Origin: a bacterium
Lineage (GTDB): Bacteria > SM23-31 > JAUVVT01
Direction of reading: 5' to 3'
Assembly: GCA_030616165.1 (NCBI GenBank)
Contig: JAUWXV010000001.1
Span: 17,843 to 81,842 of the forward strand
DNA: 64,000 nt
Numbering within the stretch: position 1 is the first letter of the stretch; each line of letters opens with the position of its first letter. A program made the position numbers and the translations under genes. The notes below the pieces were generated by a model. It saw nothing but the letters and a program-made list of their open reading frames with translations. It ran no database searches and had not been told where the DNA came from. Of this stretch, positions 19,301 to 55,771 are shown in pieces.

Positions 19301-21709
19301 ATGAAAAGAATAGTATTGTTATTCATTAATGTCTTATTTAGTATTCATTTTATAGTATTTCAGGTTTCTTTATTTGCAAGTGATGAATTTGCTACTGCTC
19401 TGCAAACTGACGAGTTGGAGATTCTGCAAGACACGAAACCTTTAACCTGGGAGGGTGACCTGTCGAAAAGAATGATGGACGGCGCCCATCGGTATATTGA
19501 GCGGAAAATCGACGAGTCAGTTACAGTCCGCCAGAAATACTGGAAGCGGGATCTCTCGTCACGAACTGCATATGAAAAATCCATCGAGCCGAACCGCAAG
19601 CGCTTCATGAAATGCATCGGTTTAGTGGGCGAGCGCGTGCCGGTTGTGATGCAGCGTCTTTGTGAAGATGCTAACCCAGAACTGGTTGCCGATACGGATA
19701 AATATAGCGTGTATCAGGTTCGCTGGTCGGTGCTGGATGGAGTGTTTGGCGAGGGGCTTTTGCTCGAGCCGAAGGTCAAGCCTACTGCTTATGTCGTGGC
19801 AGTTCCCGACGCGGGTCAGACTCCCGAACAAATTGTCGGCTTGGCAAGCGGCGTACCGAAAGAAGCACAGTATGCACGCCGCCTTGCCGAAAACGGCTTC
19901 CAGGTCGTGGTGCCGGTGATTATCAGCAGGTCTTCGGATTTTTCCGGGCACCAGGACCAGACACACCGTGAATGGATTTATCGCCAGGCGTTTCATATGG
20001 GCCGGCACATTATCGGCTACGAAATGCAGAAGGTGCTTGCAGTTGTGGACTGGTTCAAGAAAATAGCCGGAGAGGAGGCGAAGATAGGTGTTGTCGGATA
20101 CGGTGAGGGAGGATTGATAGCGTTTTATGCCGCGGCAGTGGACACACGGATAGATGCAGCACTGGTCAGCGGTTATTTCCAATCGCGTCAGGGTGTGTGG
20201 AATGAGCCGATATACCGTAATGTGTGGGCGCTGCTGCATGAGTTTGGAGATGCCGAAATCGCCACTCTGATTGCTCCACGTCCATTAGTAGTTGAATACA
20301 GCAGAGTGCCAGAGGTTGACGACTATGCAGAGAGGTTGCGGAGGAACCCTTATGTCACGAGTGGTTTTACTGTCGACGGGTATAAGGGCCAACTGCGCAC
20401 TCCGTCGTTTGAATCTGTCAGGGAGGAATTCAACCGAATTGACATACTGACGAAGCCGTCTTTTCAGCCGAAGAGCCTAATCAGCGGCAAGAACGGCTCT
20501 ACTGTGGCCCCCGGCTCGGTACAAGCGATGCGGGAATTTGCCCAATTGTTTGGAGTCCGATCGTCTATGACGCTGTCAATCGACCTGCCCATTGATCGCC
20601 GCAAGTCGCTCGATTCTGCCGAATTGCAACACCGGCAGCTCAAAGAGCTTGAATACCATGTGCAGCGGCTGATTCGCGATGCAGATTATGTCCGTGACCA
20701 ATTCTTCATGTACAAGGTGATGCCCGAATTTGCAAAAAAGAGGTGGAGCACCGCACAGCGACACGAGACATATCCATCGCAGAAGTTCATAGAAGGAACA
20801 AAGGAGTACCGTCAATACTTCTGGGAGGAAGTGATAGGTAAGTTCGATGAGCCAATGCTTCCGATGAATCCGCGAGCAAGGAAAATTTATGACGAACCGA
20901 AATGGGCAGGCTACGAAGTGGTGCTGGACGTGTTTCCGGATGTGTTTGCCTGGGGCATCCTGCTGGTTCCGAAAGACCTGAAAGCCGGTGAGAAGCGACC
21001 ATTGGTGGTATACCAGCACGGACGCAATGGTCTGCCCAGGAACTCCATCAAGGGAGGGCGGGAAGTTGCAGCGAAACTGGCTGACCGAGGATTTATCACC
21101 TTTTCACCGCACAACCTTTACCGTGGTGAGGATCGGTATCGCTTTCTTGACCGCAAGGCTAATGGAGTTAAGGCATCATTGTTTTCTTTCATCCTCGCTC
21201 AACACGAGCAGATTCTAAACTGGCTTGAAAAACTGCCGTTTGTGGATAGTAAGCGAGTAGGATTCTACGGGATTAGCTATGGGGGTGAGACGGCGGTGCG
21301 TGTGCCGCCGTTGCTTGAGCGATATTGTCTGTCAATCTGCTCAGCCGACTTTAACGACTGGGCGCGCAAGGTTGCCAGCACTCACCCTCAAGGCAGATAC
21401 AGTTTTATGTACACTATTGAATGGGAGATGCCGTACTTTGACATGGGCAGTACGTTCAACTATGCAGAGTTGGCATACCTGATGGTGCCGCGTCCGTTCA
21501 TGGTCGAGCGTGGCCACCACGACACTGTTGCACCTGATGAGTGGGTTGCTTATGAGTATGCAAAAGTGCGCTGGCTGTATGCACAACTGGGGCTTGCTGA
21601 TAAAACAGAAATAGAATACTTTAACGGCGGACACGCCATTAACTTCAGCGGTACATTCAAGTTTCTGCACAAACACCTGAACTGGCCGGAGCCTGCGGGG
21701 CAAGAATAA
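19301..21709 (+). CDS. secreted alpha/beta-hydrolase family protein (tandem hydrolase folds; esterase/peptidase-like)
   Basis: Signal peptide. GxSxG nucleophile elbows (VVGYGEGG and GISYGGE). GC-rich body. Confidence 0.5.
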   Translation: MKRIVLLFINVLFSIHFIVFQVSLFASDEFATALQTDELEILQDTKPLTWEGDLSKRMMDGAHRYIERKIDESVTVRQKYWKRDLSSRTAYEKSIEPNRKRFMKCIGLVGERVPVVMQRLCEDANPELVADTDKYSVYQVRWSVLDGVFGEGLLLEPKVKPTAYVVAVPDAGQTPEQIVGLASGVPKEAQYARRLAENGFQVVVPVIISRSSDFSGHQDQTHREWIYRQAFHMGRHIIGYEMQKVLAVVDWFKKIAGEEAKIGVVGYGEGGLIAFYAAAVDTRIDAALVSGYFQSRQGVWNEPIYRNVWALLHEFGDAEIATLIAPRPLVVEYSRVPEVDDYAERLRRNPYVTSGFTVDGYKGQLRTPSFESVREEFNRIDILTKPSFQPKSLISGKNGSTVAPGSVQAMREFAQLFGVRSSMTLSIDLPIDRRKSLDSAELQHRQLKELEYHVQRLIRDADYVRDQFFMYKVMPEFAKKRWSTAQRHETYPSQKFIEGTKEYRQYFWEEVIGKFDEPMLPMNPRARKIYDEPKWAGYEVVLDVFPDVFAWGILLVPKDLKAGEKRPLVVYQHGRNGLPRNSIKGGREVAAKLADRGFITFSPHNLYRGEDRYRFLDRKANGVKASLFSFILAQHEQILNWLEKLPFVDSKRVGFYGISYGGETAVRVPPLLERYCLSICSADFNDWARKVASTHPQGRYSFMYTIEWEMPYFDMGSTFNYAELAYLMVPRPFMVERGHHDTVAPDEWVAYEYAKVRWLYAQLGLADKTEIEYFNGGHAINFSGTFKFLHKHLNWPEPAGQE

Positions 21710-38653: not shown

Positions 38654-41254
38654 ATGGACTTATTTTTACAAGATGGGGCGAGGGTAGGAATTATAGGTGG
38701 GGGTCCCTCTGGGAGTTTTACGGCTATTCATTTATTGAGCATTGCAGCTTCGCTTAACAAAAAAATTAAGGTATTCATCTTTGATAAAAAAGATTTTACA
38801 TCTGGTTTAGGGTGTAATTTTTGTGCAGGCATTCTTTCTAATACACTAATTAAAGAGTTAGTCCAATATAATATTATTATCCCGCCAGAGATAATCCAAA
38901 GAGAGATTAAAGGATACTATTACGAGACGAGAGAGGGGACAGCATATTTCCCAAAGCCATCTACTTCATCAATTTTCAGTGTGTTCCGAGCAAATGGACC
39001 TTGCAGCTCAAAAGAATTATATAACGTTAGTTTTGACTATTTTCTTCTACAAGAAGCGATTAAAAGGGGAGCAAACAAAATAGACACCAATATCAATGAA
39101 GTCATTTTTCCTTCCACTCCACAGGATCGAGTATCACTTTACTCACAGGAGCAAAATACATATTATGAATTTGAACTGGTATTCGGTGCATTTGGAATAA
39201 ATACTCCTTTTATTAAAGAATTAGAAAAATCAGGAATCGGATACAAAGCCCCAAAATACCTGCATTCTGGTCAGGCTGAGATCCCCTACGATATATCTTT
39301 GAATAAAAAGTTTCATGACAATGTCACTGTTTTTCTTATTCCTCTCAGGAATTTATACTTCTTTTCCTTTACACCAAAAGCAGAGTATTTAACGGTTACC
39401 GCTATTGGTCCTCATGTTACAAAAGCAATGCTGGAGGAAATATTTACCATTCCGCAGGTTATGAAATATTTTCCAGACAAATGGCAGTTCCCATTGGAGT
39501 ATTGTCACTGTCATCCAAGAATATCTGTTACTATTGCGGAAAATTTCTTCTATCACCGTTTTGTGGTTGTCGGAGATGCTTGTTGGTCAAGGTATCTCAA
39601 GGATGGTATTGCATCTGCATTTTATACCTCAAAATTCGGAGTTGAATGTGCTTTCAAATATGGGATTTCACGTAATGCGTTCCGGGACAGATACTTTAGG
39701 GAAATTACTCGGATGGATAAAGATAATACTGTAGGAAAAATTTTATTTAAAATCCATAATAGATTGAAAAGGTCGCAGACTGTGCGGGGCTCTCTTTTTT
39801 CGATGACCAGAGATTACTATCATAAAACAATTCAGGAAAATGTACGATATATCCTATGGGGTTTATTTACAGGTGATTACTCTTATAAGAAGATAATGAG
39901 AAAATCTTTTAGGATTTCATTTATCGTGCCCTTTATTATAAATATTATTAATGCATACCTGAAGATTATCTTTAATAATCTGTCAAAAATTAATAAAAAA
40001 ACAAAATTAAGACCAATAAAAAATCAGAGCAGTAATGTAACAGTGTCAAATTTAGTAAACGGAGATACAATTATTGTTATTGGTGGGGGACCAGCAGGCA
40101 CTTCTTGTGCAATACATGCAAAAAAACTTGCTGTAAATAATAATATAGACTTGTCAGTCATATTAATCGAACCTAAAACTTTTAGCATACATTACAATCA
40201 GTGTGTTGGTGTTCTTTCCCCTAGGATAAAACAATTGATGGGAGATATAGGTATAGACTTCCCGGAACATTTAATTCAAACAAAAATTCCAGGGTATTAT
40301 TTGAATGCAAATGGTGAAGAAATATATCTTCCTTCTGATAAACATAACGATATTGGACTTGCTTTAAGGCGGAATGAGTTTGATGCTTTTATGATAGAGC
40401 AGGCTTTGCGGAACGGAGTACAAGTTGTCCGGGGAGAAGTTGTGACATTCGATTATTCAAAAAATGACAAAAAGAATAAATTCATTGTTTATTGCAATTC
40501 CGGCACTTATAAGTGCAATTTTATTGTAGGTGCTTTTGGTGTCGGGAATGGGATTGCCCTTGATTTTTTTAAAACTTTCCGGTACCGACCTCCACATATT
40601 CTTCAATCAATTGTTTCCAAAATTCATCCTCTGGATAATTTATATATTGATGAAATTTTTGGAAATAATATCCATACTTATCTCCCTAAATATAAAGCAA
40701 TTGAATTTGGAGCAATAACTCCAAAGGGCAACCATTTAACAGTCAATATCGCCGGTGAAAAAATCAGTTTTAAAGATATGGAATATTTTCTAATGATAGA
40801 TGAAGTAAAAAAATGGATTCCCCCCCATAAAGAACGAACTTACTTTAAAGGTCAATTCCCAACAAGTCCTGCACATCGATTCTATGGAGATAATTACTTG
40901 ATCATAGGTGATGCGGCTGGTTTAGTTCGGCCATTTAAAGGAAAAGGTGTAAATTCAGCAATTCTCTCAGGTAAAATTGCTGCTGAAACTATCGTGAATT
41001 ATGGCACAACGGCTCTTGCAATAAAACGAAACTTTGTACAACATCCACAGATACAAAAAATATTAATCGATTATAAATATGGAAAAATTATAAGAAAATT
41101 AACTATTCAGGCTTCACATCATAATCTTTTAAAATATATAATTAATTATGCAAAAAGAAATAAAACGTTCGAAACCGCTCTATATAATGCTGTCTCTGCT
41201 AACAGACTTTATAAGGATATTATTTTATGTACTTTAAGAAACTTAGTGAGTTAA
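38654..41254 (+). CDS. internally duplicated FAD-dependent oxidoreductase (two geranylgeranyl-reductase-like halves)
   Basis: Two GxGxxG dinucleotide motifs (VGIIGGGPSGSFTA at residue 10; IIVIGGGPAGTSCA at about residue 470), separated by a hydrophobic linker. Confidence 0.6.
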   Translation: MDLFLQDGARVGIIGGGPSGSFTAIHLLSIAASLNKKIKVFIFDKKDFTSGLGCNFCAGILSNTLIKELVQYNIIIPPEIIQREIKGYYYETREGTAYFPKPSTSSIFSVFRANGPCSSKELYNVSFDYFLLQEAIKRGANKIDTNINEVIFPSTPQDRVSLYSQEQNTYYEFELVFGAFGINTPFIKELEKSGIGYKAPKYLHSGQAEIPYDISLNKKFHDNVTVFLIPLRNLYFFSFTPKAEYLTVTAIGPHVTKAMLEEIFTIPQVMKYFPDKWQFPLEYCHCHPRISVTIAENFFYHRFVVVGDACWSRYLKDGIASAFYTSKFGVECAFKYGISRNAFRDRYFREITRMDKDNTVGKILFKIHNRLKRSQTVRGSLFSMTRDYYHKTIQENVRYILWGLFTGDYSYKKIMRKSFRISFIVPFIINIINAYLKIIFNNLSKINKKTKLRPIKNQSSNVTVSNLVNGDTIIVIGGGPAGTSCAIHAKKLAVNNNIDLSVILIEPKTFSIHYNQCVGVLSPRIKQLMGDIGIDFPEHLIQTKIPGYYLNANGEEIYLPSDKHNDIGLALRRNEFDAFMIEQALRNGVQVVRGEVVTFDYSKNDKKNKFIVYCNSGTYKCNFIVGAFGVGNGIALDFFKTFRYRPPHILQSIVSKIHPLDNLYIDEIFGNNIHTYLPKYKAIEFGAITPKGNHLTVNIAGEKISFKDMEYFLMIDEVKKWIPPHKERTYFKGQFPTSPAHRFYGDNYLIIGDAAGLVRPFKGKGVNSAILSGKIAAETIVNYGTTALAIKRNFVQHPQIQKILIDYKYGKIIRKLTIQASHHNLLKYIINYAKRNKTFETALYNAVSANRLYKDIILCTLRNLVS

Positions 41255-41320: not shown

Positions 41321-42829
41321 ATGACAAGGAAATTGCCACCCTTATTGTTAAATCCTATTAGTTTAATAGGGATTCTTATTGCTTTGACCAGTTTCATTGC
41401 CATTATAATTCTCTTTTTTGCTCATATTTTTTTAGCACCTGATAATCCATATATTGGAATAGTCACTTACCTGATTTTCCCAATCTTTTTAATAATAGGA
41501 TTACTTATAATTCCCTTCGGTATGTTTATTGAGAGACGGCAACAATTAAAAAGAAAAGGAATAAAAGAACGGCGTCTTCCAATTATCGATTTTAACCAGC
41601 AAGATCAGAGAAACGCTTTTATACTCTTTTTGATAGTTTTAATTATTTTTATGATATTGAGTGCTGTTGGAAGTTACAGAGCTTATGTTTTCACCGATTC
41701 AGTAGTTTTTTGTGGGAAAATCTGCCATTCTATAATGCATCCTGAATATATTACTTACATGGAGAGCCCTCATGCCCGGGTGTCATGTGCTGAGTGTCAT
41801 GTTGGAACAGGAGCCAACTGGTATGCCAAATCAAAGCTTTCCGGTGCATATCAGGTTTATGCTACAATAGCACAAAAATATCCTAAGCCTATTCCAACAC
41901 CTATCAAAAATTTACGACCAGCTCAGGAAACCTGTGAGCAGTGTCACTGGCCAGGGCAATTTTTTGGTGGGAAACAGAAAATATTTACTTATTATTTAAG
42001 TGATGAAGAAAACACCAAGTATGAAATTAATATGTTAATGAAGGTTGGTGGCGGAAATCCAAAATCCAGTAGAACTTCGGGTATTCACTGGCATATGAAT
42101 ATTCAGAATAAGATAGAATTTATATCAACGGATAATAAAAACAAAATTATTCCTTGGATTCGTTCTACTAACCTATTAACTGGGGAAGTAAAAACATTTA
42201 CTGATGAAGAGAACCCACTATCAGAAGAATTATTGTCAAAGAGTAAGCCTCATGTAATGGATTGTATGGATTGTCATAACCGACCAACTCATATCTTTAA
42301 GTCTCCAAGTCTTTCCGTTAATGAAAAAATTCTATTAAATCGAATTAATAAATCATTACCTGAGGTTAAATATATATCTGTTGAACTTCTTTCAGATGAT
42401 TATGAAACAACTGATATTGCAGTGAACACAATTGCCGAAGAGATTTGGAAATTTTACAGAGAAAATTATCCCAAGGTTTTTGAAAAGGAAAGGGATAGTA
42501 TAAAACAATCAATCAGAGAATTGCAGGAGATTTATCAGAGGAATATTTTTCCAGAAATGGGTGTAAAGTGGTCAGTTTATCCTGACCACATTGGACATCT
42601 TGATTTCCCGGGTTGTTATAGATGTCATGATAATAAACATATTACGGAATACGGAGACCGACTGGCGAATGATTGTAATCAATGTCACACAATTTTGTCG
42701 CAGGAGTTTGGAGGCGAAAAAGAAGAGACTCTCGACCCAAAAGGAATAAAATTTAAACATCCAGTTGATATTGGAGATGACTGGAAATTAGTAGGATGCC
42801 ATGAATGTCATACAGGATTAAATCCTTAA
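41321..42829 (+). CDS. inner-membrane heptahaem c-type cytochrome, ImcH-like (NapC/NirT-related quinol dehydrogenase)
   Basis: Three N-terminal TM helices. Seven haem motifs (CGKICH, CAECH, CEQCH, CMDCH, CYRCH, CNQCH, CHECH). Confidence 0.7.
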   Translation: MTRKLPPLLLNPISLIGILIALTSFIAIIILFFAHIFLAPDNPYIGIVTYLIFPIFLIIGLLIIPFGMFIERRQQLKRKGIKERRLPIIDFNQQDQRNAFILFLIVLIIFMILSAVGSYRAYVFTDSVVFCGKICHSIMHPEYITYMESPHARVSCAECHVGTGANWYAKSKLSGAYQVYATIAQKYPKPIPTPIKNLRPAQETCEQCHWPGQFFGGKQKIFTYYLSDEENTKYEINMLMKVGGGNPKSSRTSGIHWHMNIQNKIEFISTDNKNKIIPWIRSTNLLTGEVKTFTDEENPLSEELLSKSKPHVMDCMDCHNRPTHIFKSPSLSVNEKILLNRINKSLPEVKYISVELLSDDYETTDIAVNTIAEEIWKFYRENYPKVFEKERDSIKQSIRELQEIYQRNIFPEMGVKWSVYPDHIGHLDFPGCYRCHDNKHITEYGDRLANDCNQCHTILSQEFGGEKEETLDPKGIKFKHPVDIGDDWKLVGCHECHTGLNP

Positions 42830-42910
42830 AGCAAGTTTTAATAAAAATATAATTTACAATTTTTTATAAATATTATATATCGGACTCGATGTTTATCTGT
42901 CAATTAGATT

Positions 42911-44137
42911 TTATTGAGAAGATTCCTTTGCAATAGAAGACAGAGGTGTTGTTGCAGCTTCAGGCCATGGCGGAAGGATTTTTATGATTATATACAATAC
43001 GAATAGTGGAAGAAATAATAATGCAATGGATATCAAAAGACCTTCGATTCCTAAAAGTTCCATCTTATAATGGGTTAGTCCTCGAAGGCTTTTCGAGAAT
43101 AATTGACCACCTATCACGACGTTCCACCTTGTGCTGAATATCCCAATTTGAACTAAAATTGCCGCTCCAAAATAGATTAACCTACGTAACTCATCGGGGA
43201 GCCGGAATAGTTTTACAGATGCTAATGAACCCAAAGGCAGTAAAGTTCCCAGGAGTATTTGAATTACAACAAGACTTATAAACAATTTTTGTGATATCAA
43301 CTGGCCTAAAATGTGGATGGATTCAACAGACTCATACATCCGGTGGATAAAATCCAGGGTCTCGAGAGAAATATCAAGTATCATCGCATACAGCAGAAAT
43401 GACGCCAGTTTGTCCATGCATGCCATATCGATTGGTTTCCAACGAAAAAGGGTTGTTACACCATATATCAGGATCATCAACGCGATTCCTGAAACAATAG
43501 CCGAAAACAGAAATACAATAGGCATCAACACGCTGCTCCACCAGGGATTTGCCTTCACGGAGCCAAAAATAAAACCTACATATCCATGCAGTAAAAATGC
43601 TGACGGGATACCGATTATGGTAATAAACTTTCCTGCTTTACGGTCAAATCGTATTGCCTTTTCGGACAGGTCCAGTGAGCCTAATGAAAGAAGATAGTAC
43701 ATATACTTTCGCCATCCTTTTTTACTCCGAGCCCAATAAACGATGTCCTTCCTATAATCAAACCATATTTCGAGCATTAACACTATCATCAAGTACCAGG
43801 CGTAAACAAATCCGAACATTGCCATTGCTGACTTTAATTGAGGAGTGAGAAAAATTTCAATTGACCGTTCGGGGTAACTAAGGTGTGCAAGGAGCGGAAG
43901 TGGGGCTATGATCAGAAATGCCAGCGCAGTCAACATAGACAGGCGGTATGTAGGTTGAACTTCTTTTACTTCAAAAACACGCTCCAGTGAAGCAAGGATG
44001 AATGCCCCTGCGACAAGCCCTGTGATATATGGATATACGACTATCAAAATCCCCCAATGGAGTTCCACCTCGTTTGGATAAATATACCCAACCACTTGTT
44101 TTAAGATTGGCTGTAGTTGTTCGATTAAATTTTCCAT
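42911..44137 (-). CDS. NrfD/PsrC-type polytopic quinone-interacting membrane subunit
   Basis: About 10 TM helices with NrfD-like organisation; 2 bp downstream of the FeS subunit gene. Confidence 0.75.
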   Translation of the reverse strand: MENLIEQLQPILKQVVGYIYPNEVELHWGILIVVYPYITGLVAGAFILASLERVFEVKEVQPTYRLSMLTALAFLIIAPLPLLAHLSYPERSIEIFLTPQLKSAMAMFGFVYAWYLMIVLMLEIWFDYRKDIVYWARSKKGWRKYMYYLLSLGSLDLSEKAIRFDRKAGKFITIIGIPSAFLLHGYVGFIFGSVKANPWWSSVLMPIVFLFSAIVSGIALMILIYGVTTLFRWKPIDMACMDKLASFLLYAMILDISLETLDFIHRMYESVESIHILGQLISQKLFISLVVIQILLGTLLPLGSLASVKLFRLPDELRRLIYFGAAILVQIGIFSTRWNVVIGGQLFSKSLRGLTHYKMELLGIEGLLISIALLFLPLFVLYIIIKILPPWPEAATTPLSSIAKESSQ

Positions 44138-44139
44138 AA

Positions 44140-44898
44140 TTATCTCACTTCCCCATCCAAGTTAGCGTAATAAATTTTTGGTTCCGTATTAAGATGAGGT
44201 TTCAGAACCTGGACTTTGTTGAAACGCATGAATCGGGCTAATAGGCTGCTGCGCAAACCGATCTCGCCAAATATCCTCGCTTCGGTTGGACAAACTTCAA
44301 CACAAGCGGGCTTTAGACCCCGGGATAAACGATGATAGCAGAATGTACATTTTTCCGCCGTACTGGTCACAGGGTTAAGAAACCTTGCTCCGTACGGACA
44401 TGCCTGAATACAATAACGACACCCGAGGCAGTAATCTTTATCGATCAATATCACTCCATCCTTAGTGATAAATGTAGCACCTACCGGACATACCTGCACG
44501 CATGGTGGATTAGCACACTGGTTGCACAATTTTGGCACAAAGAAGGTCCGCATGATCTCATTTTCGGCAACCATTTCAGGAAAACCCTCACTTCCCCCAT
44601 TTGGGCTATCAACCTGTGCTGTCCCATCAATAAGAATTATGTACCGCTCAACCCAAGTCCGGAAAAAGAATGGTTCACGAGGTACATCATTTTCCCGCTT
44701 ACATGCATCTACACACTGTCCACAACCGATGCACTTGTCGACCTGAATTCCCATCCCGTATTGATGTATTGGTTCATTATCATTTGATGAATCAGAATCT
44801 TCTGAAGCAGGAGACCCGAATAATAACAGTACGGTTCCTACAAGTGTGCTTTCCCGTAGAAACTCTCGGCGATTCATCAATTCACGTTTCTTTTTCAT
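44140..44898 (-). CDS. Tat-exported 4x[4Fe-4S] ferredoxin subunit (NrfC/PsrB/DsrO-like)
   Basis: MKKKRELMNRREFLRESTLVG Tat signal. Four CxxCxxCxxxCP clusters. Start set at ATG 44898 (ATGA overlap with the upstream cytochrome stop). Confidence 0.85.
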   Translation of the reverse strand: MKKKRELMNRREFLRESTLVGTVLLLFGSPASEDSDSSNDNEPIHQYGMGIQVDKCIGCGQCVDACKRENDVPREPFFFRTWVERYIILIDGTAQVDSPNGGSEGFPEMVAENEIMRTFFVPKLCNQCANPPCVQVCPVGATFITKDGVILIDKDYCLGCRYCIQACPYGARFLNPVTSTAEKCTFCYHRLSRGLKPACVEVCPTEARIFGEIGLRSSLLARFMRFNKVQVLKPHLNTEPKIYYANLDGEVR

Positions 44899-45764
44899 CA
44901 GCGCACCTCCGGATAATGTGGATAATGACATTGCCAGCACGCATGATCAGGCTCATGTGACTGAAGGTCCACCCGCGGTATTTCCCCGGCACTTTCTGCA
45001 TTTTCTCCATGACAACCACCGCAAAATGTTCTCTTCCGTGGTTTACTGGGACGAAATGACCGGGGATCTTTTTTATGTGCTTCAGGAGCAGAGTGACACT
45101 GGGTACACTCCAGGGCAGCATGGTGTGAGACAGCTTTTGTCCGCGCAATTTCCCCGTGACATGCTCCACATTCCTCAGGGGGTTGCGGAGGTTTGGGATC
45201 ATGGGGTTCGTGACAAGACATACAGGGTTCTAAAGGATTATGTGTGACTATATTAATTTGGGGGAATCCCGTTGGCTTGGACGCATTATATATATGACAG
45301 AGGGGACATAAACCCCGCTGACGTGGAGCCGAAGGAGTATTTTCGCTGGGATCCTCAACATGGTTTGCACCTGGCCCATGGCATACTTCGCAGGCAACAT
45401 TCTGATGATAAGATGTTTGTTTTAACGCTACATATTCATCGTGACACTCTGAACACGCTTCCTGCCCAGCATAATGGATTGGAAGAGCTAATATAGAATC
45501 TATGGCAGCTGCTCGGTAGTGTCCCTCTTTTACAAAGGTGGGCGGCATTAAGTAATTCCGGACGGTAATGAGCATTATCACTAAAATAATAAAAATAATA
45601 AGTAAGCGTTTTATTTGGTCTGGAAAAGGAATTGATTTCCAGCCCGGCATTCTTAATTCTGGACGAAATCGAAAATTTAACATGTTTTTTGTCTGAATCA
45701 GCTTTTTAATATCAATTAAGTAATGAAAAACGAGATAATGAAAAATTTCATGGAATTTTAACAA
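44898..45764 (-). CDS. membrane-anchored octahaem c-type cytochrome
   Basis: TM helix LLIIFIILVIMLITV. Eight CxxCH motifs (CSECH, CEVCH, CPLCH, CMSCH, CGACH, CTQCH, CGGCH, CWQCH). The true start is probably an internal Met. Confidence 0.8.
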   Translation of the reverse strand: MLKFHEIFHYLVFHYLIDIKKLIQTKNMLNFRFRPELRMPGWKSIPFPDQIKRLLIIFIILVIMLITVRNYLMPPTFVKEGHYRAAAIDSILALPIHYAGQEACSECHDEYVALKQTSYHQNVACEVCHGPGANHVEDPSENTPSAPRQRGLCPLCHIYNASKPTGFPQINIVTHNPLEPCMSCHEPHDPKPPQPPEECGACHGEIARTKAVSHHAALECTQCHSAPEAHKKDPRSFRPSKPRKRTFCGGCHGENAESAGEIPRVDLQSHEPDHACWQCHYPHYPEVR

Positions 45765-46047: not shown

Positions 46048-46110
46048 TTGACTTTTTTAAAAAAAAATTATATTATTAAGAAAAATTTCATACTTAATAA
46101 CCAAACGATA

Positions 46111-46551
46111 ATGGAAGAGAGAAACACATCAAGAAAGAGTTTTATTAATTACCTGTTAGGCGGTGGTTTTACTCTTGTCGCAGCTTCTTTCTTATATCCA
46201 ATAGTGAGGTTCGTGCTCCCTCCAAAATCGACCGAAGCAGAACCTATGGCAGTATCTGCTGGCAAGGTTGGCGAGATGCATTTAAATTCTGGGAAGATAT
46301 TTAAATTTGGAAGAAAACCTGGTCTGCTTATTTATACAGAACAGGGTGAATATCAGGCATTTATGGCAACCTGTACACATCTTGACTGCATTGTGCAATT
46401 CCGAAATGATTCTGAAAGCATCTGGTGTGCTTGCCATAATGGATATTATGACCTTAATGGAAATAATATATCTGGTCCGCCCCCAAGACCCTTAGAAAGA
46501 CTGAATGTTTTTATAAAAGATGATGATATAATGGTTTCAAAAATTACTTAA
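46111..46551 (+). CDS. Rieske [2Fe-2S] iron-sulfur protein
   Basis: CTHLDC...CACHNG Rieske boxes and N-terminal TM/Tat-like anchor. Start at ATG 46111. Confidence 0.85.
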
Positions 46552-46552
46552 A

Positions 46553-47626
46553 ATGAAGACCTACACAACCAATCTCATTAATTGGCTTGATAAAAGATAC
46601 AACATAAAAGAAATAATAGGATTTATTACAGAAAAGAAGGTCCCTATTTACAAACACACTATCTGGTATTATATGGGAGGGATAACCCTTCTTTTTTTTA
46701 TCATTCAGGTTTTAACTGGCATACTTCTTCTTCTCTATTACCGACCTACTCCTGAGGAGGCATTTGAAAGTGTTCAATTTATTATGACACAGGTTCACTA
46801 CGGATGGCTTATCCGCTCTATTCACAGTTGGTCAGCAAATCTTATGATTCTTTTTGCATTTATACATATGTTCAGTGTATTACTCCTGAAATCTTACAGA
46901 CCTCCACGTGAACTAACATGGGTAACCGGTGTGCTGTTAATGTATATATCTCTTGCTTTTGGCTTCACGGGTTATCTCCTTCCGTGGAATGAATTGTCCT
47001 TTTTTGCCACAAAAGTTGGTACTGACATAGCGGGAGTTATTCCTTTTATTGGAAAATTCATTATTAGATTCCTGAGAGGTGGAGAAGACGTTACAGGAGC
47101 GACCTTGACGAGACTCTTTGGATTTCATGTTGCTGTCCTTCCAGGAGTAATCATTGTGATTTTGGTTATACATTTATTGATGGTTCAACGACAGGGAATG
47201 AGCAAACCGATAGGCTTAAAAGAAGTGAAGAAGGGGATGCTATTTTTCCCGGACTTTTTTTTAAGAGACCTTTTAGGATGGCTATTTGCAGTTGGGATTC
47301 TTGCAGCTCTGGCTGCTATCTTTCCCTGGGAACTGGGGCAGAAGGCAGACCCATTTTCATCTGCTCCAGAAGGCATCGCGCCTGAATGGTATTTTTTATT
47401 TATGTTTCAAACATTAAAATTCTTCCCCGCAAGAATATTAATTTTAGACGGCGAAGTGATTGCAGTCTTTATTTTCGCAGCACTCGGAATATTCTGGATT
47501 CTAATCCCATTTCTTGATACTAAAGCCAGAAGGGAACAAAAAAGCCCGATATTTACAACTATAGGTATTTTTGCAATTCTATACGTGGGGATAATTACTA
47601 TACTTTCTTATTTTGTATTTAAGTAA
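46553..47626 (+). CDS. cytochrome b (fused b6/subunit IV-type) of a Rieske/cyt b complex
   Basis: [38 protein letters not shown] (haem-ligating His helices), PEW motif region. Confidence 0.9.
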
Positions 47627-48933
47627 TGTATTCGCATAATCTTATGAAAAATATTATTAGACATTTCAACATTATTTACATACTATTTTTATTTATTTTT
47701 CTCTTCCCCGCTATATATTTATTTCCACAAGAAAGGCACAATAATTGTATCGAATGCCACAGTAAATTCGAAGAAGAAGAGACATCGCCAACCATTGAAT
47801 TTAAAAATGATATCCATAATACAAGTGGTATGTTATGTTCTGACTGTCATGGTGGAGACCCGGAAATAAATGCAGGTGGAAATCAAGAACTTGCTATGAA
47901 TCCTAAAAAAGGATATAAACCACCTCCGGGTCATAACGAAATCCCCGAATTCTGTGCAAGATGCCATTCTGATTTTGAATATATGAAAAAATTTAATCCC
48001 AATATAAGAGTAGACCAATATGAAAATTATTTAACAAGTCAACACGGGAAATTACTGGCAAAGGGAGATGATAAAGTAGCTAATTGTGTTAGTTGTCATA
48101 AAACCCACGGGATTCGAAAAAAAACAAACCCTGCCTCAGCCGTTTTTGCAAACAAAATTCCGGAAACTTGTAGTAAATGCCACTCAGACCCGGAATATAT
48201 GAAGGAATATAAAATCCTGACTAACCAGTTGGAAATGTATAAAAAAAGTGTTCACGGGGAATTTTTATTGGAAAAAGGGGACTTAAATGCTCCTGCTTGC
48301 AATGACTGCCACGGAAATCACGGTGCCGCTCCCCCGGGTGTCGAATCTGTACACAATGTCTGCGGAGTATGTCACTCAGGAAATAATCAGTTGTTCTTAA
48401 AAAGTTCTCATAAAAAATACTTTGATGAATTTGGCTTTCCAGAATGTGCATCATGTCATGAACATCATTTAATAAAAAAACTTACAGAAGAATCTCTCGG
48501 GGTTGGAGACCAATCTGTTTGCGGAATTTGTCATACACAAGAAGATGAAGGAGGTATAATCGCTGTTGAAATGAAAAATATTATCGAAAATTTTTCTGCA
48601 CTGCGGGATACTTGCCAAATATTGTCCGAAGAGGTAGAAAGGAAGGGTATGCCCGTTAATGAAATAAAATACCAGATGAACAATGTTGACTCTGAACTGT
48701 TAAAAGCAAGAAATATAGTGCATAGTTTTTCTCTGGAAAATATAAAACAAATAACTGAAGAAGGAACAAAACTTGCCATCTCTGTAAAAAAAATGGCAAA
48801 TGATGAATTAAAAGAATATCAAATTAGGAGAATAGGACTGGCTGTCTCGCTTTTCTTTATTTTTTTAGCGGGAACCGCCCTCTATTTGAAAATCAAGAAG
48901 ATAGACAAAAAAAATATAATAAATTCTTTTTAA
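47626..48933 (+). CDS. nonahaem c-type cytochrome with N- and C-terminal membrane anchors (cytochrome c subunit of the Rieske/cyt b complex)
   Basis: Nine CxxCH motifs. C-terminal TM IGLAVSLFFIFLAGTALYL. 1-bp overlap with the cyt b stop. Confidence 0.8.
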   Translation: MYSHNLMKNIIRHFNIIYILFLFIFLFPAIYLFPQERHNNCIECHSKFEEEETSPTIEFKNDIHNTSGMLCSDCHGGDPEINAGGNQELAMNPKKGYKPPPGHNEIPEFCARCHSDFEYMKKFNPNIRVDQYENYLTSQHGKLLAKGDDKVANCVSCHKTHGIRKKTNPASAVFANKIPETCSKCHSDPEYMKEYKILTNQLEMYKKSVHGEFLLEKGDLNAPACNDCHGNHGAAPPGVESVHNVCGVCHSGNNQLFLKSSHKKYFDEFGFPECASCHEHHLIKKLTEESLGVGDQSVCGICHTQEDEGGIIAVEMKNIIENFSALRDTCQILSEEVERKGMPVNEIKYQMNNVDSELLKARNIVHSFSLENIKQITEEGTKLAISVKKMANDELKEYQIRRIGLAVSLFFIFLAGTALYLKIKKIDKKNIINSF

Positions 48934-52076: not shown

Positions 52077-52127
52077 AAAGATCTTGAAAATTTTGCCATA
52101 ACATAATGAATAACAACAGTTTGTTAA

Positions 52128-52164
52128 AAAGAAAACAGTTCTTTGTGAGCTGTTTTCTTTTATT
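52128..52164 (+). terminator. Rho-independent terminator
   Basis: gaaaacag/ctgttttc 8-bp stem followed by TTTTATT. Confidence 0.5.
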
Positions 52165-52184: not shown

Positions 52185-53288
52185 ATGAGTACGAATAAAT
52201 TACGAAAGTTATTACTGTGTATCTCATTAATAGGATTAGGAGCATTCTCATGCAGTGAGTTAGATATTAATAATCCTTTAACATATATAAATGATAAAAT
52301 ATCTTATGAAAAAGATATAAAACCTATTTTTGCGAATAGATGTATAGATTGTCATAGTGGAAGTTCGCCTGCAGGAAATTATAACCTTTCTTCCATATTA
52401 ACGATTATGGGGAACGGTACAGACTTGAAACCGAATGTAATTATCGGAAGTCCATATAGTCTTCTTCTGATGAAGATTATTATAGGGGACGATAACCACC
52501 GTGAGTGGATAGGCTCTGAAGAAAACACTCAAAAATTGTATAAATGGATAGTTGAGGATAGTTTGAGCATCAGTGAGCCGATTGTGCATCTTGCTGGACC
52601 TATGGATGTGGATTCACCAAATTTTCATGGACAGGATATTAGAAATAAAGCGTGGTCTATGGAATCATGTAAGCTCTGTCATGGAACTGACTATAATGGG
52701 GGTTCCTCAGAGGGTTCCTGTAACAAATGTCACGATCCAAACCCGGAGGAATGCACTACTTGTCATGGTTTTGGTATGCTTGATAATCATTTGGGAGCAC
52801 CACCTCCTGATCTGAGTAACAACATCGAGACTTCTTTTAGAGGAGTTGGCGCTCACACAATACACATGACAGAGGGCGATAATTCCGATGGTATTGAATG
52901 TGAATCCTGTCACATTGTTCCCCAAAATTTGTACGATGATGGTCATATTTTTTCTGAAGAGCCTGCAGAAGTTGTTTTTAGTTATCTTGCACATAATTTA
53001 GGAGCAGAACCAATCTGGGACACTGAAACCCTGACCTGTAAAGATGTTTACTGTCATGGAAATTTCCCTTCAGGAAACAAGGAGAATGCTCCAAAATGGA
53101 CTGGCTTTGATCCGAATCCACCGAGTTGTTCTCCTGCCTGCCACCAGTTTCCTCCTGTTGGTAAAACACGAACCGGTTTTAAACACTCTCCCAGTGTTTC
53201 TCAATGCTGGTACTGCCATTCCAATCTTGATAATAAATATAATTTTATTGATAAGTCAACTCATATTAATGGAATTATTGAAAGATGA
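52185..53288 (+). CDS. octahaem c-type cytochrome, probable lipoprotein (OmaB-like periplasmic component)
   Basis: Signal peptide ending GAFSC. Eight haem motifs including CxxxCH/CxxxxCH variants (CIDCH, CKLCH, CNKCH, CTTCH, CESCH, CKDVYCH, CSPACH, CWYCH). Confidence 0.7.
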   Translation: MSTNKLRKLLLCISLIGLGAFSCSELDINNPLTYINDKISYEKDIKPIFANRCIDCHSGSSPAGNYNLSSILTIMGNGTDLKPNVIIGSPYSLLLMKIIIGDDNHREWIGSEENTQKLYKWIVEDSLSISEPIVHLAGPMDVDSPNFHGQDIRNKAWSMESCKLCHGTDYNGGSSEGSCNKCHDPNPEECTTCHGFGMLDNHLGAPPPDLSNNIETSFRGVGAHTIHMTEGDNSDGIECESCHIVPQNLYDDGHIFSEEPAEVVFSYLAHNLGAEPIWDTETLTCKDVYCHGNFPSGNKENAPKWTGFDPNPPSCSPACHQFPPVGKTRTGFKHSPSVSQCWYCHSNLDNKYNFIDKSTHINGIIER

Positions 53289-54580
53289 ATAAACTCATAA
53301 GTGTTAAAATTATTTTGTTATATTTAATCTTTACAATTCTGCCATTATATGAGAATTATGGTCAGGTTATTACGGGAAGAGTGTCATCGTATATGTACAG
53401 CTGGCAAATTCAGGACCAACAGTCAGGTTCCTCTGAACATATTCGTTTGTATCAAACCCTTGTTATGAATGTTAAAAATGTTGGGAGCCCAAAAGTCTCT
53501 TTGCATACCAATATACGCTATACGAAGGACTTCATTAATGATAGCGATTACAATCACAATTGGAAATTTCAATATTTTTATGGACAGGTAAAAAAGGTTC
53601 TTCAAGTAGCAGATATTAAATTTGGTCGGCATTATGTATATTCTGGCGTTGGCAATGGTTCAATTGACGGGATTTCTACAAAGATAAAAGTAAAAGAAAT
53701 TGCTGATTTTGAATTTTATGGCGGAATGCCTGTTTCATGGTATCATGAAATAAAGGTCCAGAAATGGAACGAGAGTAGAATGTATGGATTACGAATACAG
53801 CCGAGAATGTTCTTGAATACATTGGTGAGTATAAGTTATGTTCAAAAAAAGATGAATCCCCTCCCTTATAAGATTCCTGGGAAGTTTACTTTCAAAAAAT
53901 GGGATATAACTTCTGATGCAGTGGAATTTGTTGGATTGGATTTCTATACTCAATGGTCTGAAAAAACGAGCGCGTATGGCCGCCTCGATTGGGATATGAC
54001 GTATGATGACATTTATCGGATAAATTTTTATTATAACAGGTCGCTCTTCAATAAATTTTCTCTCAGTGCTGAATACTACTATAGAAAACCGCGGATTTAT
54101 AATAATTCGATTTTTAGTGTGTTTGCTCAGCACGATAACCGAGAATACTGGTTTCGAATTTATTATAATATTAAAGAAAATCTGTCTGTATCCGGCGGAA
54201 CATCAATTGTTATTTATTCGGGAGATAAGGGATATCGACATAATGTAAGTATATATTCAAATCGTTTTAGTATTGGCTATAATCATACAAGCGGTTACAG
54301 CGGTAGATTGGATGGATTAACAGGAAGCGTTAATTATCCGATAAGAAATAATATATGGCTGAAGGGCGGTACAAATATTTCACGATACAAGCTGTTTGAA
54401 CATCTTGAAGACTTTGAAAATGTGTTAAGTACGTTTGCAGGAATTTCAATAATGCCCAAAAAAACTTGTACGCTGGATATCGAAGGGCAGGGATTACATA
54501 ATTATAATCACAGCAGTGATTTTCGGATACTTTTGAGAGCTAACTGCTGGTTTTCATTTGGTAAAATACGGAAAAATTAA
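53285..54580 (+). CDS. outer-membrane beta-barrel (porin-like) protein embedded between cytochrome genes
   Basis: Signal peptide. Dyad-repeat beta-strand pattern, aromatic girdle residues, no Cys/haem motifs. 4-bp overlap with the upstream cytochrome gene. Confidence 0.55.
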   Translation: MNKLISVKIILLYLIFTILPLYENYGQVITGRVSSYMYSWQIQDQQSGSSEHIRLYQTLVMNVKNVGSPKVSLHTNIRYTKDFINDSDYNHNWKFQYFYGQVKKVLQVADIKFGRHYVYSGVGNGSIDGISTKIKVKEIADFEFYGGMPVSWYHEIKVQKWNESRMYGLRIQPRMFLNTLVSISYVQKKMNPLPYKIPGKFTFKKWDITSDAVEFVGLDFYTQWSEKTSAYGRLDWDMTYDDIYRINFYYNRSLFNKFSLSAEYYYRKPRIYNNSIFSVFAQHDNREYWFRIYYNIKENLSVSGGTSIVIYSGDKGYRHNVSIYSNRFSIGYNHTSGYSGRLDGLTGSVNYPIRNNIWLKGGTNISRYKLFEHLEDFENVLSTFAGISIMPKKTCTLDIEGQGLHNYNHSSDFRILLRANCWFSFGKIRKN

Positions 54581-54592
54581 GGTGTTTATTAC

Positions 54593-55771
54593 ATGACACA
54601 TGTGAAAATAATCAAAACTGTTAAATGGGTTTTTTTCTTTTTTATTGTTTATTATGGAAGTTATTACTCTATAATTGCTGCTCAAAAAAATTCTATTATT
54701 TTTTCTCATAAACTGCATATCGAAGATATAGGAGCAGAATGTGTTGATTGTCATTCAACCATCCCGGAAAGTCAGGAAATGGATGATAAAAATCTACCAA
54801 AACATGAAGAATGCTTTATGTGTCATGATGATGATATAGCATCTCAAAAATGCGGTACTTGTCATTCTGATCCGGATAATCCCGAACCGTTGGAAAATCC
54901 AATTCGTGAATTTTATTTCAACCATGTATTTCATATCAAGGAACAAAATATGGAATGCGATAATTGTCATCAGGGATTGGAAAAAGTTGACTATGCACAG
55001 AAAGAAAATCTCCCGAGTATGGAACAATGTTATCAATGTCATGATGGTGTGACAGCATCGCAAAGATGTGAAGATTGTCATACACCTACAGCTCGCCTGA
55101 TTCCAATGACTCACACCCCTGACTGGAAATTAATTCATAAGCATTCATCAAATTTAATAGAATCAGAATGCATGACATGCCACCAAGAGAATTATTGTGA
55201 AGATTGTCATACGGGAACACGATTGCTGGAAATTGGAAATGAAGATAAAGACTATGTTAATCCCAACATTCCTTCGAGTGAAGGGAAAAAGAATATGGTT
55301 CTTCAAAGGGTGCATGAACTTAATTATCGTTACACACATGGAATTGATGCTAACGATAAAAAACTGAATTGTTCTTTTTGCCATCAAGAAACACAATTTT
55401 GCGTTAGATGTCATCAAGAAGAAGAAAAGATAAATATTTTAAAACCTTCCTGGCATTCAGGACCGGAATGGGGTGCTATTGTTGAAGCAGTGGGTTCAGG
55501 GGGAGGAAGGCATGCTCGGCTTGCCAGGAGAGACATTGAAAGATGTGCAGCCTGCCATGATTCACAGGGAGAAGACCCTGTTTGTCTTATGTGTCATAGA
55601 GATTTTCTTCCAGGAAGAGGAAATGATTTAAGAACACATTTTATAGGAATGTTTTCTGGGGCAGGAGAGGGAGCATGGCATGTTGATGAAGGTTCTATAT
55701 GTTTTAATTGCCATGTAAATTCTATGACACCCGGTGTGGGATTTTGCGGATACTGTCATAGCATCAAATGA
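54593..55771 (+). CDS. 14-haem c-type cytochrome (OmcB-like outer component)
   Basis: N-terminal signal/anchor; 14 CxxCH motifs in 392 aa. Confidence 0.8.
   Translation: MTHVKIIKTVKWVFFFFIVYYGSYYSIIAAQKNSIIFSHKLHIEDIGAECVDCHSTIPESQEMDDKNLPKHEECFMCHDDDIASQKCGTCHSDPDNPEPLENPIREFYFNHVFHIKEQNMECDNCHQGLEKVDYAQKENLPSMEQCYQCHDGVTASQRCEDCHTPTARLIPMTHTPDWKLIHKHSSNLIESECMTCHQENYCEDCHTGTRLLEIGNEDKDYVNPNIPSSEGKKNMVLQRVHELNYRYTHGIDANDKKLNCSFCHQETQFCVRCHQEEEKINILKPSWHSGPEWGAIVEAVGSGGGRHARLARRDIERCAACHDSQGEDPVCLMCHRDFLPGRGNDLRTHFIGMFSGAGEGAWHVDEGSICFNCHVNSMTPGVGFCGYCHSIK

Follow-up and report, generated by a model that had tools for sequence, protein, structure and literature searches.

A probable porin-cytochrome conduit of the Ignavibacterium type in a bacterium of the FCB group

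Three consecutive genes at positions 52185-55771 of a 64-kb stretch of DNA from an SM23-31 bacterium (GTDB lineage Bacteria; SM23-31; JAUVVT01) probably encode a trans-outer-membrane electron conduit of the porin-cytochrome (Pcc) type; the probability of this reading is put at about 0.78. The whole stretch that was analysed (64,000 nucleotides; GenBank assembly GCA_030616165.1, contig JAUWXV010000001.1, positions 17,843 to 81,842 of the forward strand) is called the window. The trio comprises an octahaem lipoprotein cytochrome, a predicted haem-free beta-barrel and a 14-haem cytochrome. Judged by its architecture, it is a member of the Ignavibacterium album-type Pcc subfamily, which was listed in 2014, with a rearranged gene order. 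Gram-negative bacteria use porin-cytochrome conduits to respire minerals, electrodes and partner cells; beyond Shewanella and Geobacter, almost all that is known of them comes from gene patterns. The window adds a well-defined Ignavibacterium-type member from a bacterium of the Fibrobacterota-Chlorobiota-Bacteroidota (FCB) group, with KSB1 as its closest named relatives. Three points are of use and in part new: the large barrel family has no profile model, the 14-haem partner is strikingly invariant, and a link to a terminal cytochrome exported by the type IX secretion system (T9SS) seems not to have been described before.

Gene layout

An earlier reading made from the DNA letters without database searches (the sequence-only reading) had described the locus as a Pcc-like porin-cytochrome module. 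This is borne out by a 22-strand haem-free barrel and its constant linkage to a cytochrome. The open reading frames (ORFs) have exactly the lengths that had been given (367, 431 and 392 aa).

52185..53288, + strand: octahaem lipoprotein cytochrome, 367 aa; N-terminal PSCyt1-like monohaem domain and 7-site core including a TIGR01904 domain
53285..54580, + strand: predicted haem-free outer-membrane beta-barrel, 431 aa, with signal peptide; 22 strands, no plug, very short loops
54593..55771, + strand: 14-haem c-type cytochrome, 392 aa, 28 aa per haem; Sec-type signal; c7-type triheme/ActA-like N-terminal half

The lipoprotein gene shares 4 bp (ATGA) with the start of the barrel gene. Between the barrel gene and the 14-haem gene there are 12 bp; the two are read in one frame, and a Shine-Dalgarno-like AAGGTG sequence covers the barrel stop codon; the earlier description of overlapping genes is therefore correct for the first pair but not for the second. 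Only six ORFs in the window contain two or more CxxCH motifs. All of them lie at 41.3-55.8 kb, which marks this region as a genuine cytochrome island. The grouping of the trio is not due to chance: cytochrome ORFs are clustered in the window, and the trio recurs in distant genomes. The genes downstream of the trio are ThiN/AIR-synthase-like and unrelated to it.

By the definition of Shi et al. (2014, PMC4245776), a Pcc cluster pairs a porin-like protein of 18-22 predicted strands with a periplasmic cytochrome of 5-14 haems; an outer-membrane cytochrome is optional. The window barrel has 22 predicted strands and no haem sites, and the adjacent, probably periplasmic cytochrome has 14 haem sites. 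The optional outer-membrane multihaem lipoprotein is also represented, by a protein with a lipobox cysteine (Cys23) and eight haem sites.

The barrel protein

The 431-aa protein contains 2 Cys, 11 His and, as had been claimed, no CxxCH motif. No model in Pfam or NCBIfam matches it. The 37 closest relatives each have 420-460 aa and show only sporadic weak matches to generic barrel models (LptD, OMP_b-brl, Porin_4). Comparison with MtrB and PioB, proposed in the sequence-only reading as a check, gave no match to the corresponding models (PF11854/TIGR03509) in any of the 37 family members, even at E<=1. A profile of the barrel family found no sequence match among solved structures.

The AlphaFold2 (AF2) model of the barrel, made from the 37-sequence alignment, is confident (predicted local distance difference test 85, predicted TM-score 0.75). 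After an N-terminal signal helix come 22 long antiparallel strands, compared with the threshold of about 16 that had been set for the proposal. Every loop has 20 residues or fewer; a plug domain and a long constriction loop are both absent. The most conserved motif of the family, R-x-P-R-I-x-x-N-S-I-F-S-V-F (residues 267-280), sits in the last of three longer loops (residues 150-164, 191-210 and 268-284). A Foldseek comparison with the PDB returned only generic barrels (Occ and OpdQ porins, ushers and AlgE; TM 0.3-0.5) and is uninformative beyond "beta-barrel". An empty barrel of this size would be an open hole, and its anatomy thus calls for a partner that fills the lumen. From the model, the 431-aa protein would be a plug-less 22-strand outer-membrane barrel, and it is proposed to be the sheath of a cytochrome wire.

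Several other identities were considered for the barrel and rejected. The geometry would fit a TonB-dependent transporter, but the protein has only 431 aa and matches neither Plug nor TonB_dep_Rec. A fused porin-cytochrome of the Cyc2 type would carry haem sites in the barrel polypeptide, which has no CxxCH and only two cysteines. Membership of the MtrAB/PioAB/MtoAB group is contradicted by the strand number (22 versus 26-28) and by the missing PF11854/TIGR03509 match; for a decahaem partner of the MtrA family, the DmsE/MtrA model scored 16.9 bits against a cutoff of 192.

The 14-haem cytochrome

The 392-aa protein has 14 CxxCH motifs, the number given previously. All 14 are kept across 120 homologues, with invariant Cys and His except for the His of the ninth site (at least 90%); 12 additional His are invariant or nearly so. 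This pattern of conservation points to bis-His haems with a role in electron transfer, not in catalysis. The N-terminal half matches Cytochrome_C7 (Pfam, 2.2e-20) and nanowire_3heme (NCBIfam, 1.7e-11). When a profile of the family was compared with solved structures, the best match was GSU1996, a periplasmic dodecahaem cytochrome from Geobacter (3OV0, E 2.5e-31), followed by ActA (8K9E, 6e-19); ActA was also the sole return of a Foldseek search with the AF2 model. The C-terminal 220 residues, which hold eight haems, have no solved relative and are not confidently modelled.

In 18 homologues the N-terminus resembles a cleavable Sec signal with an AxA-type site. Inspection of the N-terminus and scans with Pfam and NCBIfam revealed neither a lipobox nor a T9SS tail, and no other sign of surface export. 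From the Sec signal and the c7/GSU1996-like build, the 14-haem protein is probably the periplasmic, barrel-inserted partner.

The octahaem lipoprotein

The 367-aa protein does have the eight sites for which it had been called octahaem, but only six are canonical CxxCH; the other two are CKDVYCH (CX4CH) and CSPACH (CX3CH). Both atypical sites are credible, since CX4CH is present in all of 14 aligned homologues, and at the aligned position of the window's CX3CH the other proteins have a canonical CGxCH. A core of seven sites is common to all aligned homologues, and the additional N-terminal PSCyt1-like monohaem domain is found only in the subgroup formed by the window and KSB1. The C-terminal part matches the TIGR01904 CxxxxCH/CxxCH model above its cutoff (2.9e-9).

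The lipobox (GAFSC, Cys23) is conserved in 15/15 full-length homologues. Its cysteine is mostly trailed by S-[D/E] and more acidic residues; acidic residues in this position resemble the signal that is reported to direct Bacteroidota lipoproteins to the cell surface (Lauber et al. 2016). Because of the conserved lipobox, these export-like residues and a CX4CH motif of the kind found in Pcc outer-membrane cytochromes, the octahaem protein is probably the OmcB/MtrC-like partner at the cell surface. Its previous assignment as a periplasmic, OmaB-like partner is the less likely one: the octahaem protein is the lipoprotein, while the 14-haem protein bears the Sec signal.

Linkage and spread across genomes

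Twenty-five related loci (L001-L025) were compared by scoring their ORFs against the window proteins. One search for such loci used patterns from a 13-sequence subset of the barrel family. The loci come from metagenome-assembled genomes (MAGs) of KSB1, Ignavibacteria/Ignavibacteriota, Bacteroidota and Zixibacteria, from Rosettibacter firmus, from a contig that encodes the exact MROS_1564 protein of Melioribacter roseus, and from two large genomes. L001 is Rosettibacter firmus, L002 is KSB1, L025 is Melioribacter, and L006, L007, L011 and L017 are Ignavibacteria; I. album was not among the loci that the patterns of the 13-sequence subset retrieved.

The gene that follows the barrel encodes a homologue of the 14-haem cytochrome in 23/23 loci with downstream sequence. 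These homologues are 34-72% identical, and full-length copies have 344-443 aa. All but one have 14 CxxCH, with copies split over two ORFs in L002 and L005 joined for the count and those of L010 and L014 incomplete; the Zixibacteria locus has 13 and one atypical site. The linkage persists down to 24% barrel identity, and in many loci the two genes overlap by 4 bp. The co-occurrence of the barrel with cytochromes across FCB-group genomes, a check that had been proposed for the module, was invariable in the loci compared. The sequence-only reading had also proposed translational coupling of the lipoprotein and barrel genes. This is reasonable for the 4-bp overlap in the window, but across the family it is chiefly the barrel and 14-haem genes that are tightly coupled.

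Most loci, from four phyla, also encode a homologue of the lipoprotein. Its gene precedes that of the barrel in the window, L002, L003 and L005, and it follows the 14-haem gene in Ignavibacteria-type loci. In L023 (8161-9219) and L024 (8199-9287) the third gene encodes a lipoprotein with PSCyt1-like and Ig-like domains. Since the barrel and the 14-haem cytochrome are constant over the loci while the third gene varies, this pair is the invariant core and the third partner is modular. In the same two loci, which are on 8.4- and 5.7-Mb contigs of large genomes, genes for tetratricopeptide repeat proteins come next after the variant lipoprotein gene.

An exhaustive search with the barrel profile found 999 representative clusters (50% identity) at E<=1e-3, 228 of them at E<=1e-30. 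Named clusters belong to Calditrichia, Cloacimonadota, KSB1, Ignavibacteria/Melioribacteraceae and Bacteroidota; the annotation of every one is "hypothetical protein". The low-scoring representatives that were checked are "hypothetical proteins" of Calditrichia and Cloacimonadota, with no Geobacter member among them. Overall, the family spans Ignavibacteriota, KSB1, Calditrichia, Zixibacteria, Cloacimonadota and Bacteroidota MAGs. Automated surveys of iron cycling may miss it, since it has no profile model and its members carry this annotation.

Relationship to known systems

The pcc cluster of I. album encodes a porin (IALB_1839), a periplasmic cytochrome of 400 aa with 14 haems (IALB_1838), an outer-membrane cytochrome with an atypical motif (IALB_1837) and an associated periplasmic cytochrome (IALB_1840); its porin and its periplasmic cytochrome are described as no more than distant relatives of all other Pcc groups (PMC4245776). 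The window likewise has a haem-free barrel of about 420-430 aa. Next to it is a cytochrome of about 400 aa that carries 14 CxxCH, and the lipoprotein cytochrome has a CX4CH site. Equivalence with IALB_1837-1839 rests on this matching architecture and on a link through M. roseus. The window barrel matches the Rosettibacter barrel P0037 (E 4.2e-21, 98% coverage), which is 71% identical to MROS_1564 of M. roseus; it is thus homologous to the MROS_1564-type barrel. The Rosettibacter and Melioribacter loci fit the published I. album cluster gene by gene. The cultured species M. roseus reduces Fe(III) and has been reported to carry a Geobacter-like pcc; for Ignavibacteria and Caldithrix, later metagenomic papers describe pcc clusters that are "OmbB-like" or "Geobacter-like".

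The window differs from the I. album/M. roseus type in several respects. The order in that type is a small c554-like cytochrome, the barrel, the 14-haem cytochrome and the lipoprotein, whereas the lipoprotein gene of the window precedes the barrel. The small upstream cytochrome of Ignavibacteria (3-4 haems, about 180 aa) is absent from the window. The window lipoprotein has eight sites compared with seven in that type, with an extra PSCyt1-like monohaem domain at its N-terminus. The barrels are only about 25% identical.

To our knowledge, OmaB/OmbB/OmcB of Geobacter (Liu et al. 2014) is the only Pcc that has been biochemically proven in trans-membrane electron transfer. In Geobacter sulfurreducens, as in the window, a barrel (about 20 strands) is encoded together with periplasmic and surface-lipoprotein multihaem cytochromes. 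The parallel with this system in the sequence-only reading is sound with respect to the three-component logic; the gene order differs, however, and the mapping of the partners was probably inverted. Octahaem OmaB is soluble and periplasmic, and the lipoprotein OmcB is the surface partner (PMC4245776). Haem numbers would therefore be swapped, with 8 periplasmic and 12 surface haems in Geobacter but 14 and 8, respectively, in the window.

MtrCAB of Shewanella (PDB 6R2Q), a barrel-sheathed cytochrome capped by a surface lipoprotein cytochrome, serves as the working model; in the window, the MtrC/MtrF-type domain is found in a neighbouring 925-aa cytochrome. The c7-type triheme modules in the N-terminal half of the 14-haem protein are shared with the dodecahaem "nanowire" GSU1996 and with ActA. 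Unlike the role proposed for the 14-haem protein, these two are not associated with barrels.

Proposed electron path and alternative explanations

In the proposed path, quinol would be oxidised at the inner membrane, most likely by a Rieske/cytochrome b/9-haem complex, otherwise by an NrfD-type module. The 14-haem cytochrome, exported to the periplasm by Sec, would act as a bis-His haem wire and would be partly threaded in the lumen of the barrel, as MtrA is in MtrB. The plug-less 22-strand barrel would surround this wire in the outer membrane. The octahaem lipoprotein, flipped to the surface and docked on the outer mouth of the barrel, would take the electrons and pass them to insoluble or extracellular acceptors, probably through the MtrC-like cytochrome exported by T9SS. 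Gene anatomy, haem-site conservation, barrel fold and size, signal types and the constant linkage are results of the analysis; that the proteins form a complex, which of them is within the barrel and which way electrons flow are inferred.

A number of points weigh against this proposal. The likeness to OmbB is one of architecture. The literature searched held no experimental paper on the I. album-type subfamily; it also held none that names the M. roseus locus tags and none on the cluster in multi-omics work on M. roseus. The AF2 model of the 14-haem protein is reliable for residues 1-170 only and does not fix the overall length or shape of the protein. In its N-terminal helix and first domain, the protein is similar to ActA of alternative complex III (ACIII), in which the helix is an uncleaved inner-membrane anchor. 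In addition, the third proteins of L023 and L024 have two CX3CH sites only and no canonical CxxCH; a multihaem surface partner is thus not obligatory.

This last observation also favours a conduit completed by the barrel and the 14-haem cytochrome, as in MtoAB/PioAB and the two-gene pcc of Anaeromyxobacter and Kuenenia, with the lipoprotein as an exchangeable accessory (a substrate-specific acceptor or a docking or sensing protein) and not a required segment of the wire. The pair is invariant while the third gene varies in position, size (237-491 aa) and haem number, and Shi et al. (2014, PMC4245776) remark that large periplasmic cytochromes might cross the membrane unaided by means of their extra haems. 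Such an arrangement is nevertheless somewhat unlikely: a lipoprotein with the 7-site core is found in most loci from four phyla, which argues for a conserved electron-transfer role there. Topology could also be the reverse of that proposed, with the octahaem lipoprotein periplasmic (OmaB-like) and the 14-haem cytochrome extracellular (OmcB-like). The octahaem protein has the haem count of OmaB, its gene overlaps that of the barrel by 4 bp in the window, and outer-membrane lipoproteins in many bacteria face the periplasm by default. This topology is considered improbable. The 14-haem protein has a plain Sec signal without lipobox, T9SS tail or surface-export feature and is built of periplasmic-type c7/GSU1996/ActA domains, whereas the surface partners known so far (OmcB, MtrC) are lipoproteins; atypical CX4CH has been reported solely in Pcc outer-membrane cytochromes, not in periplasmic ones. 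The acidic residues past the lipidated cysteine, which resemble the Bacteroidota signal, point the same way.

The direction of electron flow is a separate matter. Porin-cytochrome conduits are in principle bidirectional, and a Rieske/cytochrome b complex adjoins the trio; such complexes are generally known to act in reverse flow in Fe(II) oxidisers. Inward flow as in MtoAB/PioAB, with extracellular Fe(II), a cathode or a syntrophic partner as the electron source, is unlikely, as the cultured carrier M. roseus is an Fe(III) reducer, no terminal oxidase or carbon-fixation genes were seen in the window and the adjoining MtrC-like surface cytochrome is typical of reductive pathways; none of these points is decisive. 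Finally, the barrel could be an ordinary solute porin or export channel that lies among cytochrome genes incidentally, in keeping with its generic fold matches and the weak LptD, Porin_4 or OMP_b-brl matches of a few family members. This is highly improbable: the barrel gene is directly upstream of the 14-haem cytochrome gene in all 23 informative loci from several phyla, the start and stop codons of the two genes often overlap, and 22 strands without a plug or long constriction loops would be a lethal open pore on their own. An incidental nutrient porin is rejected because of this linkage and anatomy; the barrel is not a recognised nutrient porin, an outcome that would have spoken against the sequence-only reading. 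The outward conduit with the octahaem lipoprotein at the surface is therefore the explanation that is preferred.

Neighbouring redox genes and other features

Within 15 kb, the cytochrome island contains six multihaem cytochromes and two quinone-interacting modules. The features next to the trio are as follows.

within 41321-45764, + strand: NrfH/NapC-like 6-haem cytochrome, 502 aa (second quinone-linked redox set)
within 41321-45764, - strand: 8-haem cytochrome, 4Fe-4S protein and NrfD-type membrane subunit, Qrc/ACIII-like (second quinone-linked redox set)
46048-46551, + strand: Rieske protein (library match)
46553-47626, + strand: cytochrome b (Cytochrome_B, 3e-56)
47626-48933, + strand: 9-haem cytochrome (9 CxxCH) with C-terminal membrane helix
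49299..52076, + strand: putative extracellular cytochrome, 925 aa; PKD domain, 8 CxxCH and one CX3CH (CGIGCH), MtrC/MtrF-like domain, C-terminal T9SS sorting domain
52127..52161, + strand: strong 15-bp A/U-rich hairpin in the 108-bp gap that separates the T9SS cytochrome and lipoprotein genes

The 925-aa cytochrome matches Por_Secre_tail/TIGR04183 (1e-9) and Mtrc-MtrF_II-IV (4.8e-9), and is proposed to be the terminal surface reductase. The KSB1 locus L002 is flanked by T9SS-tailed homologues of 884 and 940 aa, a pair of paralogues with 37% identity, and a fragment of a homologue is located upstream in L003. Related cytochromes of the Ignavibacteria loci have no T9SS tail. No paper that joins T9SS with multihaem cytochromes was found in the literature searched. 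A T9SS-exported MtrC-like cytochrome may represent an undescribed, FCB-specific route for display of a terminal reductase; the T9SS-tailed neighbour makes this route to surface placement testable. More tentatively, the barrel and its partner might form a porin-cytochrome family that extends across the FCB superphylum (22-strand sheath and invariant 14-haem wire), possibly independent of OmbB and MtrB, in which a KSB1-like branch would pass electrons to a T9SS-anchored MtrC-like cytochrome.

The genes at 46048-48933 have start and stop codons that abut or overlap. They are proposed to encode a bc-type complex with a multihaem c subunit, which as a quinol oxidase would feed the conduit. Homologues of the 9-haem protein (with 11 haems) are encoded directly upstream of the barrel in four Ignavibacteria loci (L006, L007, L011 and L017), and in Rosettibacter (L001) the homologue is fused to cytochrome b in a CbcL-like manner. 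A trio of NrfD, FeS and cytochrome genes similar to that of the window is found ahead of the Pcc clusters in Rosettibacter and Melioribacter (L001, L025).

In Rosettibacter firmus (L001, 13607-20950), the Pcc cluster is followed straight after by a CcsA-type cytochrome c assembly gene, and also by a complete haem biosynthesis operon (GluTR, HemC, HemD, HemE, HemN and ferrochelatase). This suggests that haem supply is co-regulated with the cytochrome conduit in this organism.

The hairpin at 52127-52161 ends 23 nt before the start codon of the lipoprotein. The gap has a minimum free energy of -23.7 kcal/mol (z -3.8), and 1/200 shuffles folds equally well. The consensus scan does not list it, as its stem has too few G-C pairs. 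The hairpin is terminator- or attenuator-like and may set the stoichiometry of the T9SS cytochrome gene relative to the Pcc trio, since there is no room for a promoter between it and the lipoprotein start. A consensus promoter scan of the AT-rich window DNA gave 58 sites where 45 were expected and is uninformative.

Just upstream of the cytochrome island, an 866-aa ORF (38654-41254, + strand) has two tandem halves that resemble FAD-dependent oxidoreductases, with Rossmann matches of the geranylgeranyl-reductase/halogenase type at residues ~13-51 and ~472-543. No Rfam family reached its gathering score anywhere in the 64-kb window, so a rise in G+C to 0.495 at 20-22 kb is not due to rRNA; it probably reflects an 802-aa ORF at 19301-21709.

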